Positions 1,406 through 58,316 are shown, counted from the first letter of the stretch. The stretch is 64,000 nt of DNA from Lachnospiraceae bacterium (GCA_015057945.1 SVDD01000007.1:26830-90829); one strand, 5' to 3'. Numbers and translations: made by a program. Notes: generated by a model from the letters alone, not told the origin.

Positions 1406-2743
1406 ATGAAAAACCGAAACAAATTCATCAAAAAAACCGCCGCGGAAATATTGATAGCAGTTTTAGCGACTGTCAATGTCTCCACCTTTGCACTTGCAGA
1501 CACAAATTCCGTCAAAGTGGAAATCACGGAATACGGTCCTGTTGGAACTGCATCTTCCGAACAAGAGAGCAGCGCAAGTACCGGTCCTGCCGGGAGCATC
1601 GTTTCCGATGGCACCGTAAATTCTGACGGAAATTCATCCTCGGCAGCTACAGCCGAAACAACTGCGGCTACTGTACAAGAAACAACAGCAGCTTCTATAC
1701 AGGAAACTACAGCTGCTGCTTCTCAGGTAACGGAAGGACCTACAGGAACAGCTGCAGCGACTGTCGATACCACTAAAGAGACAAAAGCTTCATCCGAAGC
1801 TTCAGCCGCCGCATCAGGAACCTCTGCCTCTTCCGGAACAACATCCGCCACTTCCGGAGCAGTAACAGAAGCATCCGAAACCACTGCGGCTTCCGGCACC
1901 GATACCTCATCAGCTACAAACTATTTCAAGAACTCCGGAAACACAAAGAGTTTCCTTAAGACAAGTCTTACAGCCACTCCCGAGGTAAATGCCAACTTTG
2001 CAATTCTTGTTGACACCGATTCCAACCTTGTGATTGCTGACAAAAACGGCGAAGCCAGGATGAATCCGGCATCCATGACCAAGGTAATGACACTTCTCGT
2101 TGCCTGTGAGCACCTTTCCGATCTCTCGGAAAAGATAGAGATAACCCAGGATATCGTGGACTATGTACAGAAGGAGGGTGCTTCTAACTGCGGATTTAAG
2201 GCAGGAGAAAAGGTGACTGTTCAGGATCTTCTCTACGGTCTCATACTTCCTTCAGGAGCTGATGCAGCCCTCGCACTGGTACGCCATATTGCAGGTTCAG
2301 AGGCACAGTTTGTAAATCTTATGAACCAGAAGGCTCAGGAGCTTGGTATTTCAGCGACAACACATTATACTAATTGTACAGGGCTTTACAATGCCGATCA
2401 TTACACAACCGCAAAGGACATGGCTCTCGTCATGAAATATGCCGCGGCTGACCCTTACGCAAGTGCAGTTCTTTCCACAAGAAGCTACACAACAAAAGCC
2501 AGCAACAAGCACAGCAGCGGCCTGTCATTTTCAAATCTCTTTTTGAAGCGTATAGATGGACAGGAGACCGGCGGTGAGGCTATGATGGCAAAGACAGGTT
2601 ATGTTGCAAAGGCCGGTAACTGTGCTGTTTCTTATTTCACGGCTGCCAGCGGACGACATTATATCTGTGTGACCGGAAAAACATCTGGGGCATGGAATGT
2701 TGTTTATGCACATGCCGACCTTTATAAAAAATACGGAAAATAA
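1406..2743 (+). CDS. D-alanyl-D-alanine carboxypeptidase (peptidase S11) with a long Ser/Thr/Ala-rich N-terminal stalk
   Basis: Signal peptide, low-complexity linker, SxxK (ASMTK), SGA at the SxN position, HYTNCTGL and KTG motifs. Confidence 0.88.
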   Translation: MKNRNKFIKKTAAEILIAVLATVNVSTFALADTNSVKVEITEYGPVGTASSEQESSASTGPAGSIVSDGTVNSDGNSSSAATAETTAATVQETTAASIQETTAAASQVTEGPTGTAAATVDTTKETKASSEASAAASGTSASSGTTSATSGAVTEASETTAASGTDTSSATNYFKNSGNTKSFLKTSLTATPEVNANFAILVDTDSNLVIADKNGEARMNPASMTKVMTLLVACEHLSDLSEKIEITQDIVDYVQKEGASNCGFKAGEKVTVQDLLYGLILPSGADAALALVRHIAGSEAQFVNLMNQKAQELGISATTHYTNCTGLYNADHYTTAKDMALVMKYAAADPYASAVLSTRSYTTKASNKHSSGLSFSNLFLKRIDGQETGGEAMMAKTGYVAKAGNCAVSYFTAASGRHYICVTGKTSGAWNVVYAHADLYKKYGK

Positions 2744-2833
2744 GTGAGCTCCAGCCTTCAAGTACGGCAAGATATCCATGAAACCTGCCGGAACGGACCG
2801 ATATGGGCTGCCAACCCACTTATGGAGGAAAAA

Positions 2834-4567
2834 ATGGCTGGAATTTTGGGCGAGCTGGTTGGACCTGCAAAACTGGTTGCTATCTCTATAGGGGAGATTC
2901 CCGAACAGTTTAAAGTAGATGGTGAACTGAAGATAGGCCGGCGACGTTTCTTTAAATTTAAGAATGAAACCAAAATATATCTGGAATATCCTCTTCTTGC
3001 AAAAGATCAGGGTAAGCTGATTCACCTGCTGGGAGAGTGGCATTATATAAATCTGACTGACCAGAATACCACCACCATTGATGATGAGGAACTGCCTCTG
3101 AAGGGAGACAGGATCCTGAAAAACGGAGATATCATAAGGATAAAAAGAGGTTCAGACATGCTTATCTTTGTTTTCCTCATGAAATTCTCCGGAGAACTTG
3201 AATGGAAGAGAGTCTTTCTGGACAGAGAGCAGAAGATCTATCATATCTACAGTCATGTCAGTGAATATGAGAAGGCCGGAGAGAGCTCTGCTTCTTCAGA
3301 TTCCGGAGCAGAAGCGGAGTCTCCGGATAAACCCGGGGCAGAAAAGAATGAAGCTCCGGATCCCGGGGCCCATCATGCCATCTTGCGTTACACTGACGGG
3401 TACTGGCAGGTGGAGGACACCAACACCAAAAGAGGTGTTTACGTAAACCAGAACAGGATAGACGGATATAAGCTTCTGAAGCTTTATGACATCATAAACA
3501 TCGGTAACACACATTTCGTATTCTACGGAGATTATATAGCCTATAATCTGGAGACCTTCAGGGACAATGATCTGGAGATCCACATCAAAGAAAGATCGGT
3601 AAGAGGATTTTTCAAACGTCAGATACTTCTTAAGGATATCAATTTACGGATTGAACCCGGAAATATGGTGCTTATCCTCGGCGGATCAGGTGCCGGAAAG
3701 ACCACCTTTATCAATGCCGTGACCGGCTATGAAAAGGCCAATGCCGCTATCCGGCAGGGCGACGTGGATGTTTATGACGACTACGAAAAAATGAAATACA
3801 GGATAGGCATGGTTCCGCAGCAGGATCTACTTCGTGGTGACGATACCGTCATCATGACTCTTTCCAATGCTGCGGAAATGCGTATGCCTACCACTTCCGA
3901 TCTTAATGAGAGGAAAGAACGGGTAAACGAACTTCTGCGTCTTTTCGGTCTTGAAAACGTAAGAGGCGAGCTGGTGGATAAGCTTTCAGGCGGACAGCGT
4001 AAACGTCTCTCCATCGCAACCGAGTTCGTTGCCAATCCGAGCATCTTCATCCTGGATGAGCCGGATTCCGGTCTCGACGGAGTTATGGCCAGAGATCTTA
4101 TGAAACAGCTTCGCAATATTGCGGATCAGAACAAGATCGTCATGGTCATCACCCACACCCCGGACAGAGTCATTGACATGTTTGACAAGGTCATAGTTCT
4201 TGCAAAGGACAGCAACCAGACCGGACAGCTGGCATTCTACGGAACTGTGGATGAAGCTAAAAAATTTTTCAACCGTGAGACCATGGAAGACATCATACTG
4301 ACGGTAAACAGTGAAGGTGAAGGCGGTGAAGGTCAGGCGGACATATACATCAGAAAATTCCAAAGACTCAGAGAAGAAGTTCCCTTTACTCCTCCCGATA
4401 CTATGGACAACGGGGTAGGAGTCAGGACTTCTGACGGAACCGCTCTTGAACCGGAGAGCATACCGGAGGATCCGATATATGCAGAGAATGATGAGAAGAT
4501 CAGCTCCGAGGATATACTGAAAGGGGATCTTCTGTCCGACGAAAAGGTTGAGGTAGATCTGAACTGA
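2834..4567 (+). CDS. FHA-domain ABC transporter ATP-binding protein (two FHA-like domains plus an ABCG-type ATPase)
   Basis: GGAGG RBS before ATG 2834 (track ORF starts at 2744). FHA-like segments (KIGR..., HHAIL...VEDTNTKRGVYVN), Walker A GGSGAGKT, LSGGQ signature, ILDEPDSGLD, THT switch. Confidence 0.85.
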   Translation: MAGILGELVGPAKLVAISIGEIPEQFKVDGELKIGRRRFFKFKNETKIYLEYPLLAKDQGKLIHLLGEWHYINLTDQNTTTIDDEELPLKGDRILKNGDIIRIKRGSDMLIFVFLMKFSGELEWKRVFLDREQKIYHIYSHVSEYEKAGESSASSDSGAEAESPDKPGAEKNEAPDPGAHHAILRYTDGYWQVEDTNTKRGVYVNQNRIDGYKLLKLYDIINIGNTHFVFYGDYIAYNLETFRDNDLEIHIKERSVRGFFKRQILLKDINLRIEPGNMVLILGGSGAGKTTFINAVTGYEKANAAIRQGDVDVYDDYEKMKYRIGMVPQQDLLRGDDTVIMTLSNAAEMRMPTTSDLNERKERVNELLRLFGLENVRGELVDKLSGGQRKRLSIATEFVANPSIFILDEPDSGLDGVMARDLMKQLRNIADQNKIVMVITHTPDRVIDMFDKVIVLAKDSNQTGQLAFYGTVDEAKKFFNRETMEDIILTVNSEGEGGEGQADIYIRKFQRLREEVPFTPPDTMDNGVGVRTSDGTALEPESIPEDPIYAENDEKISSEDILKGDLLSDEKVEVDLN

Positions 4568-20514: not shown

Positions 20515-20766
20515 TGCATAAGTCCCTGTCAGGCGGCTATGCAGACTGCAAGTTTACTTGCAAGGATGCATAGGCATCTGACAGGACAACAGAAATCGAG
20601 AAGCAGCGCATCGCGCGGATTCGAGATTTCTGCAGGATTGCGAGAGTGCGAAGCACGAAGCAATCCGTGGGACTTATGCACGTATGCATATTATAAGTCC
20701 CTGTCAGGCGACTATGCAGACTGCAAGTTTACTTGCAAGGATGCATATTATAAGTCCATATCAGGC
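20515..20766. repeat. Inverted-repeat element (TGCATAAGTCCC...GGGACTTATGCA, about 165 bp) followed by a re-duplication of its first ~55 bp
   Basis: TAAGTCCCTGTCAGGCG(G/A)CTATGCAGACTGCAAGTTTACTTGCAAGGATGCATA occurs at about 20519 and 20694. Confidence 0.7.
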
Positions 20767-22392: not shown

Positions 22393-22574
22393 TGACGATA
22401 TAGTAAACCGTCGATATCGGAACGCTTCGCGCTATGCGCTCTCGCGTTCCTCCCACATTCCGCACTCTCAGGCCGATAAATCGTCCCTTCGTGCTCCATG
22501 TGGGGCGTGTCATGAAGTCTGTCTTCCACTTTAGTGCAAGCACAAGTGGAAGAAGACTTATGACACTTATATCA
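22393..22574 (+). mobile_element. Full-length (182 bp) TIR element with a degenerate left end
   Basis: Body nearly identical to 53106-53287; right end ACTTATGACACTTATATCA. Confidence 0.85.
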
Positions 22575-25425: not shown

Positions 25426-25604
25426 TGGCATAAGTGTCATAAGTCCATCCGGCATCTATGCTGGCATAAGTGCCGGATGGACTTAATGACGCGCCCTAAC
25501 ATGGAGCACGGAATGACGCTTTAGCGGCATGGGAGTGCGGAATGTGGGAGGAGCGCGTTAGCACGAAGTGCGAAGCGATCCTATGTCAAAATCGACAAGT
25601 CACT
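25426..25604 (-). mobile_element. Divergent member of the 182-bp element family with compensatory stem changes (end approximate)
   Basis: Shares ATAAGTGTCATAAGTC, CATGGAGCACG and GAGTGCGGAATGTGGGAGGA with the other copies; stems differ in sequence but still pair. Confidence 0.75.
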
Positions 25605-35436: not shown

Positions 35437-35703
35437 ATGATTTCAAAAGAGAAGAAGGCAGAGATTATCGCACAGTACGGCCGTAAGGCAGGCGACACAG
35501 GTTCACCTGAGGTTCAGGTTGCTATCCTTACAGCAAGAATCAACGAGCTTACTGAGCACCTTAAGAAGAACCCTAAGGATCACCACTCAAGAAGAGGACT
35601 TCTTATGATGGTTGGTCAGAGAAGAGGACTTCTTCAGTACCTTGCCAAGACAGATCTTGAGGGATACAGATCACTCATCGAGAAGCTCGGTATCAGAAAG
35701 TAA
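35437..35703 (+). CDS. rpsO: 30S ribosomal protein S15
   Basis: [30 protein letters not shown]. Confidence 0.99.
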
Positions 35704-53105: not shown

Positions 53106-53287
53106 TGATGTGAGTGTCAAAAGTAGATATCGGACCGCTTCGCGCTATGCGCTCTCGCGTTCCTCCCACATTCCGCACTCTCAGGCCGATAAATCGTCCT
53201 TTCGTGCTCCATGTGGGGCGTGTCATGAAGTCTATCCTCCACTTTTGTGCAAGCACAAGTGGAGGAAGACTTATGACACTTATATCA
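53106..53287 (+). mobile_element. Full-length 182-bp TIR element with a 6-bp TSD (AATAAA)
   Basis: TGATGTGAGTGTCAAAAGT ... ACTTATGACACTTATATCA; AATAAA at 53100-05 and 53288-93. Confidence 0.9.
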
Positions 53288-53373: not shown

Positions 53374-53486
53374 ATATTTTCTTCGGGGCAGGGTGTGATT
53401 CCCTACCGGCGGTATAGTCCGCGAGCCTTTGTGCATGAACCGGTGTGATTCCGGTACCGACAGTATAGTCTGGATGAGAGAAGAAA
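53374..53486 (+). ncRNA. FMN riboswitch (RFN element)
   Basis: TCTTCGGGGCAGGGTG..ATTCCCTACCGGCGGTATAG...CCGGTG..ATTCCGGTACCGACAGTATAGTCTGGATGAGAGAAGA; promoter TTGACA-N17-TAGTCT upstream. Confidence 0.95.
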
Positions 53487-53504
53487 CGTAATGACGCGAT
53501 TATT

Positions 53505-53565: not shown

Positions 53566-54189
53566 ATGTCAAATAAGATTAATGTTCAGAAGCTGGTTTA
53601 CACAGGACTTCTTACAGCCCTTGCGGGAGTGCTCATGACCTTTGAGTTCAGCATTCCCTTCTTCCCGCCATTTTACAAGATAGACTTCAGTGATGTTCCC
53701 AGTGTCATCGCACTTTTCACCATGGGACCTTTATCCGGACTCTTCGTTGAGATAGCAAAGCTTGTCATCAAACTTATCACTGTGGGAACAAACAGTATGT
53801 ATGTTGGAGAAGTTTCAAACATGCTCGGAGCATTGCTCTTTATATTCCCTCTGTGGTTCCTTTTCAAGAAGACAGGAAAAACAGATAAGGGTATAGCAAT
53901 AGCTCTTATTACGAGCGTTATCATCCGCACAGCATGGATGTGCTTCTGCAATGCTTTTATCACACTTCCTATGTACGCAGCGGCAATGGGCTTAAGCATT
54001 AACGATGTGGTAGTTATGGTTTCCTCAGTTAACCCGATGATCAAGGATCTTCCTACATTCATCATCCTTGCTACCATTCCTTTCAACCTTATCAAGTTAT
54101 GTCTTGTATATGCACTTTCGTTTGTGCTTTTCTCAAGACTCAGAGTTTCCGTTCCCGGATTTCGGGCAATGAAGACAACCAATGTGTGA
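53566..54189 (+). CDS. ribU: ECF transporter S component, probably riboflavin-specific (RibU)
   Basis: FYKIDFSDVP, GEVSN and PFNLIK S-component motifs; directly under the FMN riboswitch; AAGGAG RBS before ATG 53566. Confidence 0.85.
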   Translation: MSNKINVQKLVYTGLLTALAGVLMTFEFSIPFFPPFYKIDFSDVPSVIALFTMGPLSGLFVEIAKLVIKLITVGTNSMYVGEVSNMLGALLFIFPLWFLFKKTGKTDKGIAIALITSVIIRTAWMCFCNAFITLPMYAAAMGLSINDVVVMVSSVNPMIKDLPTFIILATIPFNLIKLCLVYALSFVLFSRLRVSVPGFRAMKTTNV

Positions 54190-54310: not shown

Positions 54311-54339
54311 TTGCCAACAGACATAAATTTATGTATTAT
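54311..54339 (+). promoter_or_regulatory. sigma-A promoter of tRNA-Pro(AGG)
   Basis: TTGCCA-N17-TATTAT with an upstream A-rich element. Confidence 0.7.
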
Positions 54340-54372
54340 ATCTTAGTCGCTTGATTTAAGTGATCAAGAAAT

Positions 54373-54447
54373 CGGGGTGTGGCTCAGTTTGGCTAGAGCG
54401 CTTGGTTAGGGACCAAGAGATCGTGGGTTCAAATCCCGTCACTCCGA
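54373..54447 (+). tRNA. tRNA-Pro with anticodon AGG (A34)
   Basis: Complete cloverleaf: acceptor CGGGGTG/CACTCCG + A73, anticodon arm CTTGG-TTAGGGA-CCAAG (AGG at 54408-10), T loop TTCAAAT; CCA not encoded. Confidence 0.92.
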
Positions 54448-54681
54448 TGAACAGTGAAAGACGAAGGCCTAAAGTGATCGGGCTTTCGTCTTTTTTTCTT
54501 ATAAATCAATTAGTTATCATTGTTCTCATAGACTTATATCAACTCATGGTATATGATAGCGGAATTTAAAAATACACTTCACGGCAGCATAGCTCAACAC
54601 TTATTTTTCAAAAAAGTGTTGACAAGAATCATGAATTTATGTAATATACAACGGTCGCTTGAAACGGGCGGCGAAATAGTC

Positions 54682-54756
54682 CGGGGTGTGGCTCAGTTTG
54701 GCTAGAGCACCTGGTTTGGGACCAGGGGGTCGCAGGTTCGAATCCTGTCACCCCGA
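54682..54756 (+). tRNA. tRNA-Pro(TGG)
   Basis: CCTGG-TTTGGGA-CCAGG anticodon arm; own promoter TTGACA (54619-24)-N17-TAATAT. Confidence 0.97.
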
Positions 54757-54967
54757 CGATGAGAGAGTGGGAATCCTTGTTTTAAAGGGTTCCTTTTTTT
54801 ATTTTTCATTCTGGTAGCGCCAGGTGATGCCGGTTTTTTTAACATCAATTTCCCATCATACGCATACGCGCATACGCTGAAATAATGATAAAATAAAAAA
54901 GCATTGACAAAAAGAGACTCTGGATTATATAATATGTAAGCTGTCTGAGACGGACAGCAAAAAAGCT

Positions 54968-55042
54968 CGGGGTGTGGCTCAGTTTGGCTAGAGCACCTGG
55001 TTTGGGACCAGGGGGTCGCAGGTTCGAATCCTGTCACCCCGA
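54968..55042 (+). tRNA. tRNA-Pro(TGG), identical second copy
   Basis: Identical to 54682-54756; own promoter TTGACA (54904-09)-N18-TATAAT. Confidence 0.97.
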
Positions 55043-55317
55043 CGAGGTTTAAAGAGGTTCGGATTTTTCCGGGCTTCTTTTTTTGTTATAAAACCGGTCC
55101 CATGTTCCTGAACCTGCACACGGGACCGGTAAGCGGAACAGGGCAGGATGACTGAGTTATGACAGAGCTGCGGATTTATTGCATAGCAGAATCTCCGGCA
55201 CATGACAGAGCTGCTGTTTTACCGTAACTCCCTTCATACAAAAGCTGTACTGTACAGGCATATCGCCCGCATCAGTACAGCTTTCTATAGATAACTCCCC
55301 CTATGAGCTTGTAAACA

Positions 55318-56328: not shown

Positions 56329-56510
56329 TGATATAAGTGTCATAAGTCTTCCTCCACTTGTGCTTGCACAAAAGTGGAGGATAGACTTCATGACACGCCC
56401 CACATGGAGCACGAAAGGGCGATTTATCGGCCTGAGAGTGCGGAATGTGGGAGGAACGCGAGAGCGCATAGCGCGAAGTGGTCCGATATCGACTTTTGAC
56501 ACTAACATCT
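56329..56510 (-). mobile_element. Full-length 182-bp TIR element, inverted orientation
   Basis: Near-exact reverse complement of 53106-53287; no TSD seen. Confidence 0.9.
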
Positions 56511-58134: not shown

Positions 58135-58316
58135 TGATATAAGTGTCATAAGTCTTCCTCCACTTGTGCTTGCACAAAAGTGGAGGATAGACTTCATGAC
58201 ACGCCCCACATGGAGCACGAAAGGACGATTTATCGGCCTGAGAGTGCGGAATGTGGGAGGAACGCGAGAGCGCCTAGCGCGAAGCGGTCCTATATCGACT
58301 TTTGACACTAACATCA
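58135..58316 (-). mobile_element. Full-length 182-bp TIR element with a 5-bp TSD (TAATA), abutting the yjfB-like start codon
   Basis: TAATA at 58130-34 and 58317-21; the right TSD overlaps the A of ATG 58321. Confidence 0.9.

Follow-up and report, generated by a model that had tools for sequence, protein, structure and literature searches.

Why bacteria avoid A34 tRNAs other than tRNA-Arg(ACG) is an old open question. Reviews and surveys describe bacteria as devoid of ANN tRNAs save Arg(ACG), with Leu(AAG) and Thr(AGU) of some Firmicutes and Mollicutes as retained exceptions. Other bacterial ANN tRNA genes are described as sporadic, and surveys of about 4,000 GtRNAdb genomes recognized only Leu(AAG) and Thr(AGU) as retained. 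A 2026 study reported that A34 tRNAs of four-fold boxes, including Pro(AGG), are neutral or beneficial in E. coli, and described their absence from nature as a paradox. The 64-kb stretch of Lachnospiraceae DNA analyzed here (hereafter the window) raises this question anew, as it carries a gene for tRNA-Pro with the anticodon AGG. Is the encoded A34 real, is the gene maintained, and how would it be used? The gene is real, conserved and widespread, and the codon preference of the window fits its use. Most probably, Pro(AGG) is a working and selectively maintained isoacceptor with an encoded A34 that reads CCU and CCC in place of Pro(GGG). Full-text searches of the literature gave no account of a natural bacterial Pro(AGG) shared by a whole clade. 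The 2018 survey of Rafels-Ybern et al. may mention it, and Pro(AGG) genes are surely already annotated automatically in public genomes.

The AGG gene and its locus

ARAGORN identified three tRNA genes in the window, all on the plus strand and all specific for proline (agg at 54372-54448, tgg at 54682-54757 and tgg at 54968-55043; Table 1). The Rfam tRNA model RF00005 matched the AGG gene (54373-54447) over its full length, from model position 1 to 71, with 61.5 bits and an E value of 1.5e-12 (gathering score 29), while the UGG copies scored 67.3 bits. All 21 stem pairs of the cloverleaf are standard or G-U, and the anticodon loop reads UUAGGGA (U32-U33-A34-G35-G36-G37-A38), with A34 at window position 54408 and G37 at 54411. 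The set of identity elements established for E. coli ProRS, C1-G72, A73, G35 and G36, can be read directly in the sequence, and G36-G37, the substrate of TrmD for m1G37, is present as well. The original prediction of a complete tRNA-Pro with loop TT-AGG-GA and intact proline identity elements (C1-G72, A73, G35, G36 and G37) is thus borne out by ARAGORN, RF00005 and the reading of the loop.

The two UGG copies are identical to each other; 11 of the 75 positions are different in the AGG gene, exactly the number given in the original prediction. Pairing is kept at every stem change, as had also been claimed: two changes are compensatory (C28-G42 to U-A and A51-U63 to G-C) and two produce wobble pairs (G4-C69 to G-U and C50-G64 to U-G). 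The other differences lie outside the cloverleaf stems, at positions 26, 34, 44, 46 and 57.

Each of the three tRNA genes forms its own unit, with a sigma-70-type promoter-like site, a short leader, a tRNA lacking an encoded CCA, and a hairpin followed by a U-run (Table 1). The -35 and -10 hexamers of the AGG unit probably act as a promoter, in line with the earlier claim that the gene has its own sigma-A promoter, and both hexamers are kept in the related strains JC7 and C9. Inverted repeats comparable to the leader hairpin of the AGG unit precede both UGG genes. The terminator-like hairpin after the AGG gene was assessed on the fold of 54450-54505, where none of 200 shuffled sequences folded as well. 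The AGG unit and the first UGG unit share promoter and leader sequences of the form CAT[A/G]AATTTATGTA[T/A]TATA ... GTCGCTTGA, a homology which indicates that the array grew by tandem duplication.

Table 1. Features of the proline tRNA array and its surroundings, in window coordinates
Feature	Position	Strand	Details
Clostridiales-1 RNA	20519-20676	+	RF01699
Clostridiales-1 RNA	22412-22574	-	RF01699
Clostridiales-1 RNA	25426-25588	+	RF01699
Clostridiales-1 RNA	53125-53287	-	RF01699
FMN riboswitch	53375-53489	+	RF00050, 115 bits; immediately precedes the ECF S-component gene
ECF S-component gene (putative RibU/FmnP-type riboflavin transporter)	53566-54189	+	FMN riboswitch upstream
Promoter-like site of the AGG unit	54311-54339	+	-35 TTGCCA 54311-54316, 17-nt spacer, -10 TATTAT 54334-54339; consensus scan 10/12
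Leader hairpin of the AGG unit	54350-54368	+	Just 5' of the mature 5' end; 7-bp stem, -6.4 kcal/mol, z = -2.57 (fold of 54345-54372)
tRNA-Pro(AGG)	54373-54447	+	Anticodon 54408-54410, A34 = 54408; CCA not encoded
Intrinsic-terminator-like hairpin after the AGG gene	54456-54500	+	15 bp, 9-nt loop, then U-tract; -20.9 kcal/mol, z = -4.45
Promoter-like site of UGG unit 1	54619-54647	+	TTGACA-17-TAATAT; homologous to that of the AGG unit
tRNA-Pro(UGG) copy 1	54682-54756	+	ARAGORN; RF00005, 67.3 bits
Terminator-like hairpin after UGG copy 1	54769-54794	+	z = -3.83
Promoter-like site of UGG unit 2	54904-54933	+	TTGACA-18-TATAAT, 12/12
tRNA-Pro(UGG) copy 2	54968-55042	+	ARAGORN; RF00005; identical to copy 1
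Terminator-like hairpin after UGG copy 2	55051-55080	+	z = -4.24
Clostridiales-1 RNA	56329-56491	+	RF01699
Clostridiales-1 RNA	58135-58297	+	RF01699

Upstream of the array lies an ECF S-component gene, which the FMN riboswitch directly preceding it suggests to encode a riboflavin transporter of the RibU/FmnP type. Downstream of the array are a small hypothetical gene, a DeoC-family aldolase gene and a gene for an AIM24/TIGR00266 protein. In relatives, a creatininase-family gene and sbcCD stand between the RibU gene and the downstream genes, while the window has neither. No mobile-element or phage genes adjoin the tRNA array in the window. The surrounding DNA is also dense in Clostridiales-1 RNA, a dispersed structured repeat of about 163 nt, with six copies in 64 kb scoring 92-113 bits.

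An A at 54408 could result from an assembly or sequencing error that hides a true CGG, GGG or UGG anticodon. We examined sequencing data in the form of assembled Logan contigs, aligning contigs with proline tRNAs at least 80% alike to the AGG gene. The exact AGG gene was present in contigs of four independent fecal DNA runs (X1-X4), at depths of about 857, 216, 25 and 57. The only other letters at 54408 among these proline tRNAs were T and C, and G was found in none of them. In X1, T occurred at about twice the depth of the organism, which fits the two UGG copies; C occurred either at low depth or at a depth that did not track the window organism across runs. The AGG-UGG-UGG array is kept in six further assemblies encoding an identical AIM24 protein, among them the NCBI MAG GCA_017934265.1 and the JGI metagenome 3300021306, and the exact AGG tRNA of the window is also found in two isolate genomes (JC7 and C9) and in four isolate-size runs. 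The A is therefore seen at 25-857x in contigs of four DNA runs and in six other assemblies, and the AGG anticodon of the window is real and no assembly or sequencing error. With the same A in the isolate genomes and isolate-size runs, the probability left to an error is negligible.

Conservation and spread of Pro(AGG)

The window organism is a gut or rumen member of the Lachnospiraceae. Judged from the proteins adjoining the array, its closest named relatives are three isolates, Lachnospiraceae bacterium JC7 (90-92% amino-acid identity), Oribacterium sp. C9 (89%) and Oribacterium sp. WCC10 (79-82%). We compared the site 3' of RibU among relatives, using the 207-aa RibU as query. The window organism and Oribacterium sp. 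C9 (RibU 89% identical) carry AGG + UGG + UGG, JC7 (90%) carries AGG + UGG, a more distant relative (L258/L259; 70%) carries UGG + UGG, and Oribacterium sp. WCC10 (79%) carries no tRNA there. On the AIM24 side of the relatives' loci synteny breaks, and no tRNAs were found there. Since the relative at 70% RibU identity has UGG + UGG alone, the AGG gene is dispensable at the RibU locus in some lineages.

Among the close relatives that carry it, the gene is invariant. This survey recovered the identical AGG gene in JC7 and C9 (75 of 75 positions), while only 52-54 of the 70 nt upstream are identical (23-26% diverged). Despite this surrounding divergence, the TTGCCA and TATTAT hexamers before the AGG gene are conserved in both strains. 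Across the six other assemblies, the three tRNAs have no variable site, compared with 9-33 variable columns per flank segment. The absence of any change in 75 nt across three species would be unexpected by chance at such flank divergence, which argues for selection on the AGG gene.

Both window copies share one and the same Pro(UGG) body with all relatives examined (L255, L256, L258 and L259), down to 70% RibU identity. The promoters and spacers of the UGG genes vary while their body does not, and the AGG copy beside them stays distinct. This suggests concerted evolution of the UGG body or a very strong constraint on it.

We then looked for Pro(AGG) in one genome per GTDB species, with a pattern that fixes positions 31-39 and the T arm (GTTAGGGAC, 12-15 bases, GGTTCRAATCC), keeping the taxon labels of MAGs as recorded. 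Among the scan matches listed, ARAGORN called Pro(AGG) in 112 of 120 loci. At least 66 of the listed matches belong to Bacillota, mostly Lachnospiraceae, "Eubacterium", Herbinix and other Clostridia, and include the isolates Diplocloster agilis and Lientehia hominis. At least 35 are Bacteroidota-like, mostly Cytophagales (Cyclobacteriaceae, Fulvivirga, Reichenbachiella), with Fulvivirga sediminis and Fulvivirga sp. M361 among them; at least three are labeled Succinivibrionaceae/Enterobacterales and at least eight are other or unlabeled. Pro(AGG) thus occurs in at least three phyla, cultured strains included.

The 64 distinct AGG sequences among the listed matches behave as a tRNA family. As much as 99.8% of their cells are paired according to the cloverleaf, and 13 of the 21 pairs show compensatory changes, a level reached in none of 500 shuffles and approached by no slid register. 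C1-G72 and A73 are invariant in all 64 sequences, G35 and G36 being fixed by the search pattern. Among the listed matches, the nearest AGG genes of other species (L013 and L017) differ from that of the window at 7 positions and share with it G26, A44, A57 and U69, against the UGG body. These shared letters speak against a fresh mutation and for an AGG lineage that predates the Oribacterium-like clade. Of the 11 sites that distinguish AGG from UGG, 7 have in the AGG gene the letter of a Lachnospiraceae-like GGG tRNA (L157), whose acceptor stem is also the same. Its lower anticodon stem and A38 are of the UGG/CGG type, unlike L157.

Taken as sequences, these genes indicate that Pro(AGG) recurs in bacteria, as an old lineage of many Lachnospiraceae and, with independent origins, in Cytophagales and Succinivibrionaceae. 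The original prediction had placed A34 tRNAs other than Arg(ACG) mostly in some Firmicutes. This holds in part, with many Lachnospiraceae and other Clostridia among the carriers, but Pro(AGG) recurs beyond them, in Cytophagales and Succinivibrionaceae. It would then stand as a third A34 tRNA conserved across clades, beside Leu(AAG) and Thr(AGU).

Certain neighbors of the AGG gene recur in other Clostridia: a Pro(CGG) gene with a near-identical body, a Thr(GGU) gene immediately upstream, or the arrangement Asn(GUU)-Pro(AGG)-Arg(UCU) (L002, L008, L016, L029, L063, L067, L071, L098, L109, L118 and others; further loci are L007, L015, L032, L050, L055, L061, L086, L090 and L112). These arrangements suggest that the gene has several stable genomic settings. 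More Pro(AGG) variants, with anticodon stems CACATTAGGGATGTGG and CGTCTTAGGGAGGCGG, occur in metatranscriptome contigs from gut and rumen (X10, X25 and X28, with loose ends at 54401). As the scan pattern would miss these variants, the true spread of Pro(AGG) is presumably wider than the 112 listed matches. ARAGORN also called a Pro(agg) on a 1-kb contig binned as Nanoarchaeota (L092, JBBSWY010000040.1, 397-472). Archaea are reported to have no A34 tRNAs, and this case could be a mis-binning or a real exception.

Carriage by a phage or another mobile element, outside the core translation machinery, is suggested by Pro(AGG) genes in the tRNA arrays of a handful of very large viral contigs. Such matches number only 8 in 2.9 million viral contigs, and in the window the gene lies between a riboswitch-RibU transporter unit and housekeeping genes, in synteny across strains and species and with no phage genes adjoining. 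We therefore regard mobile carriage as highly improbable. The viral contigs (L261-L266) have arrays of 11-31 tRNAs with Pro(AGG), Leu(aag), Ser(aga), Phe(aaa) and Asn(att); two of them, L265 and L266, correspond to IMGVR_UViG_3300028591_000087 (193 kb). The same contigs carry Ile(tat) and a tRNA with a CUA anticodon that ARAGORN labels Pyl.

The gene could also be a neutral or decaying proline duplicate that mutated at position 34 and goes unused in translation. The homology of its promoter and leader to those of a UGG unit, in an array grown by tandem duplication, would fit such an origin, as would the absence of the AGG unit at the syntenic site of the more distant relative and the lack of any sign of high expression in RNA-run contigs. 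Decay is nevertheless hard to reconcile with 0 of 75 changes over three species next to an upstream region 23-26% diverged, with stem changes that are all compensatory or G-U, with the strong family-wide covariation, with the conserved hexamers and terminator, and with an AGG gene in more than 100 species-level genomes. We consider it very unlikely. The original prediction had seen in Pro(AGG) a maintained isoacceptor and not a decaying copy. The three-species identity amid diverging flanks, the conserved hexamers, the gene's own terminator and the covariation of 64 AGG tRNAs all argue that Pro(AGG) is indeed a selectively maintained isoacceptor.

Codon use, Pro(GGG) and the state of A34

In 43 non-overlapping ORFs of the window, proline is encoded by CCU (42%), CCC (22%), CCA (11%) and CCG (24%). 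The fraction U/(U+C) is 0.65 in the Pro box, between that of the Arg CGN box, decoded by an A34/I34 tRNA (0.75), and those of the Ala (0.45), Thr (0.34) and Ser UCN (0.30) boxes. CCU is preferred over CCC, most strongly in translation genes: the ratio is 66:13 in the nusA-infB-rbfA-truB-ribF-pnp block and 176:113 elsewhere (Fisher p = 1.5e-4). In rpsO (35437-35703), proline is encoded twice, both times by CCT, as had been noted in the original prediction. This codon use is consistent with a U-preferring main decoder but not specific for AGG, because Pro boxes tilt alike in bacteria having GGG; a Pro U/(U+C) above those of Thr and Ala is also seen in GGG-bearing bacteria, such as E. coli. For this reason we set aside as evidence the observation that, in 8-kb loci around other AGG genes, Pro U/(U+C) exceeds those of Thr and Ala in three phyla, as E. 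coli trends alike.

Two further features of codon use stand out in the window. Ala, Thr, Gly and Val are most often encoded by the A-ending codon of their boxes, whereas that codon is depleted in the Pro (11%) and Arg (9%) boxes. CUU accounts for 48% of the Leu CUN box and CUA for only 2%, a bias which may hint at the Leu isoacceptor set of the organism, encoded outside the window.

If Pro(AGG) replaces Pro(GGG), the latter should be missing. As a GGG reference we used L157 (44% GC, with the same acceptor stem as the AGG gene), taken from a metagenome scan with the GGG anticodon arm, which is very widespread in soil, water and gut. No proline tRNA with 80% or more similarity to the AGG gene had G34 in X1-X4, although the window organism reaches about 860-970x in X1. 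GGG-type contigs in X1 had depths of 2600-3800 or below 170. We considered whether a Pro(GGG) at about 3600x in X1 could belong to the window organism and rejected this, as its depth does not track the organism across X1-X4. The matching GGG loci (L136, L191, L200, L222 and L237) have an encoded CCA and lie on contigs of 49-61% GC, and the high-depth Pro(GGG) of X1 is assigned to other, more abundant bacteria. In the four isolate-size runs that hold the exact AGG tRNA of the window (3.5-5.1 Mb of contigs), the canonical GGG tRNA had no match, nor did it in a fifth isolate-size run holding a Lientehia-type AGG tRNA at 142x. The same procedure recovered diverse GGG and CGG tRNAs in metagenomes. 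To be detected by the test, a tRNA had to share long exact stretches with the canonical GGG arm or reach 80% similarity to the AGG gene, and the AGG gene itself, identical to the GGG reference at 62 of 75 positions, was missed by it. Given this need for long exact seeds, we conclude that canonical Pro(GGG) is likely, but only likely, absent from the window organism.

We infer the expression, charging and decoding of Pro(AGG) as follows. The gene would be transcribed as its own unit of promoter, short leader, tRNA and terminator, and the CCA end would be added post-transcriptionally. ProRS would charge the tRNA through the usual bacterial set of G72, A73, G35 and G36, which leaves position 34 outside. 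Pro(AGG) would then most likely read CCU through an A:U pair and CCC through A-C or I-C wobble, the job of Pro(GGG) in most bacteria, while the two adjoining UGG genes would cover CCA and CCG. The original prediction had held that A34 implies a broadened TadA or superwobbling. Neither follows, as an engineered Pro(AGG) works unmodified and, with two UGG genes adjacent, superwobbling or four-codon reading by AGG is unneeded.

Whether A34 stays adenosine or is deaminated to inosine is a separate matter. We lean towards an adenosine, while granting inosine a substantial, if smaller, chance. A34 has proved unmodified in all G35-bearing tRNAs studied to date, among them the Thr(AGU) and Ser(AGA) tRNAs of Oenococcus oeni and engineered Pro(AGG). 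The loop of Pro(AGG) departs from the known TadA specificity, U33-A34-C35-G36 (or A35), by having G35 in place of C35 or A35. No TadA-like ORF with a deaminase motif was found within the 64-kb window.

Contigs of RNA runs bear on this question as well. They contain AGG-specific sequence at 2-30x, at or below flank depth, which could be DNA or precursor. A was seen at 54408 at 2-4x, and one contig (X26) starts within the tRNA and continues across the terminator. We discounted this A as evidence of an unmodified A34, since the X26 contig may be precursor or DNA. No G was found at 54408 in the low-depth assembled contigs of about six RNA runs (including X9, X10, X25, X26 and X28), which is weak evidence against editing, because minor variants are lost in contigs and m1G37 impedes reverse transcription.

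The competing scenario is a functional isoacceptor in which a TadA of widened specificity converts A34 to inosine, yielding a Pro(IGG) that reads CCU, CCC and, weakly, CCA, much like the Pro(IGG) of eukaryotes and in parallel to Leu(IAG) of Lactobacillales. TadA of Streptococcus pyogenes and O. oeni has already expanded to Leu(AAG). The loop UUAGGGA differs only at positions 32 and 35 from the CUACGGA of two bacterial Arg(ACG) tRNAs from metagenomes; G36, present in both known TadA substrates, is kept, as are U33, G37 and A38 of these two Arg(ACG) loops. The proline codon profile, with U far above C and A depleted, also resembles that of the Arg CGN box read by ICG. Set against the unmodified state of all A34+G35 tRNAs examined and, weakly, the lack of an A-to-G change in RNA-run contigs, these similarities make this scenario a tentative one. 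It is equally tentative that TadA widened to Pro(AGG) independently in Lachnospiraceae, Cytophagales and Succinivibrionaceae, which would make Pro(IGG) the third natural bacterial I34 tRNA.

Either outcome matters. If A34 is unmodified, these would be natural organisms with an adenosine wobble as main decoder. If it is inosine, bacterial TadA would have broadened repeatedly towards eukaryote-like substrates and retraced a step in the expansion of I34 in eukaryotes, and edited mRNA sites would probably shift too, as in S. pyogenes. Both can be tested in cultured isolates: Oribacterium sp. C9, Lachnospiraceae bacterium JC7, Diplocloster agilis, Lientehia hominis and Fulvivirga sediminis.

Comparison with known A34 tRNAs

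The closest laboratory counterpart is the engineered proL G34A Pro(AGG) of Salmonella enterica and E. coli, which is functional and unmodified, reads CCU about as well as CCC, and replaces Pro(GGG) at no measurable cost; an orthogonal AGG tRNA is also unmodified. The engineered tRNA has the same anticodon on a bacterial tRNA-Pro body, but it is a laboratory mutant of a GGG gene, whereas the AGG gene of the window is natural and conserved. The anticodon arm of the window gene is also remodeled, with G31-C39 and A38 where canonical GGG tRNAs have C31-G39 and U38.

Natural unmodified A34 is known from Thr(AGU) of Mycoplasma and Leuconostocaceae and from Thr(AGU) and Ser(AGA) of O. oeni. Like Pro(AGG), these Thr(AGU) and Ser(AGA) tRNAs combine A34 with G35 and serve a four-fold box. 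The A34 tRNA of Mycoplasma reads its whole box, while in the window two UGG genes coexist with AGG.

The Leu(AAG) of Lactobacillales, which becomes Leu(IAG) in O. oeni, S. pyogenes and oral streptococci, resembles Pro(AGG) in more respects. Both are non-Arg A34 tRNAs of a four-fold box, found clade-wide in Bacillota, that go with a preference for U-ending codons; Leu(AAG) stands in for its G34 isoacceptor, as Pro(AGG) probably does. They differ at position 35 (A35 in Leu, G35 in Pro), and I34 is demonstrated for Leu. Their hosts differ too: Leu(AAG) is found in AT-rich lactic acid bacteria, and Pro(AGG) in Lachnospiraceae, Cytophagales and Succinivibrionaceae, the window having about 45% GC.

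Bacterial Arg(ACG), edited to ICG by TadA, is the one near-universal bacterial A34 tRNA. Its loops of the G37 type share U33-A34-N35-G36-G37-A38 with Pro(AGG), and its CGN box has a codon profile resembling that of the Pro box in the window. Arg(ACG) has C35 and C32 where Pro(AGG) has G35 and U32, and its editing is both essential and demonstrated.

Finally, the cytosolic Pro(AGG) of eukaryotes has the same encoded anticodon, in place of GGG as is likely in the window organism, and is edited to IGG by ADAT2/ADAT3. The eukaryotic ADAT is a heterodimer with relaxed loop specificity, while bacterial TadA is a homodimer that is strict about the loop, and nothing suggests a common descent of the eukaryotic and bacterial Pro(AGG) genes.
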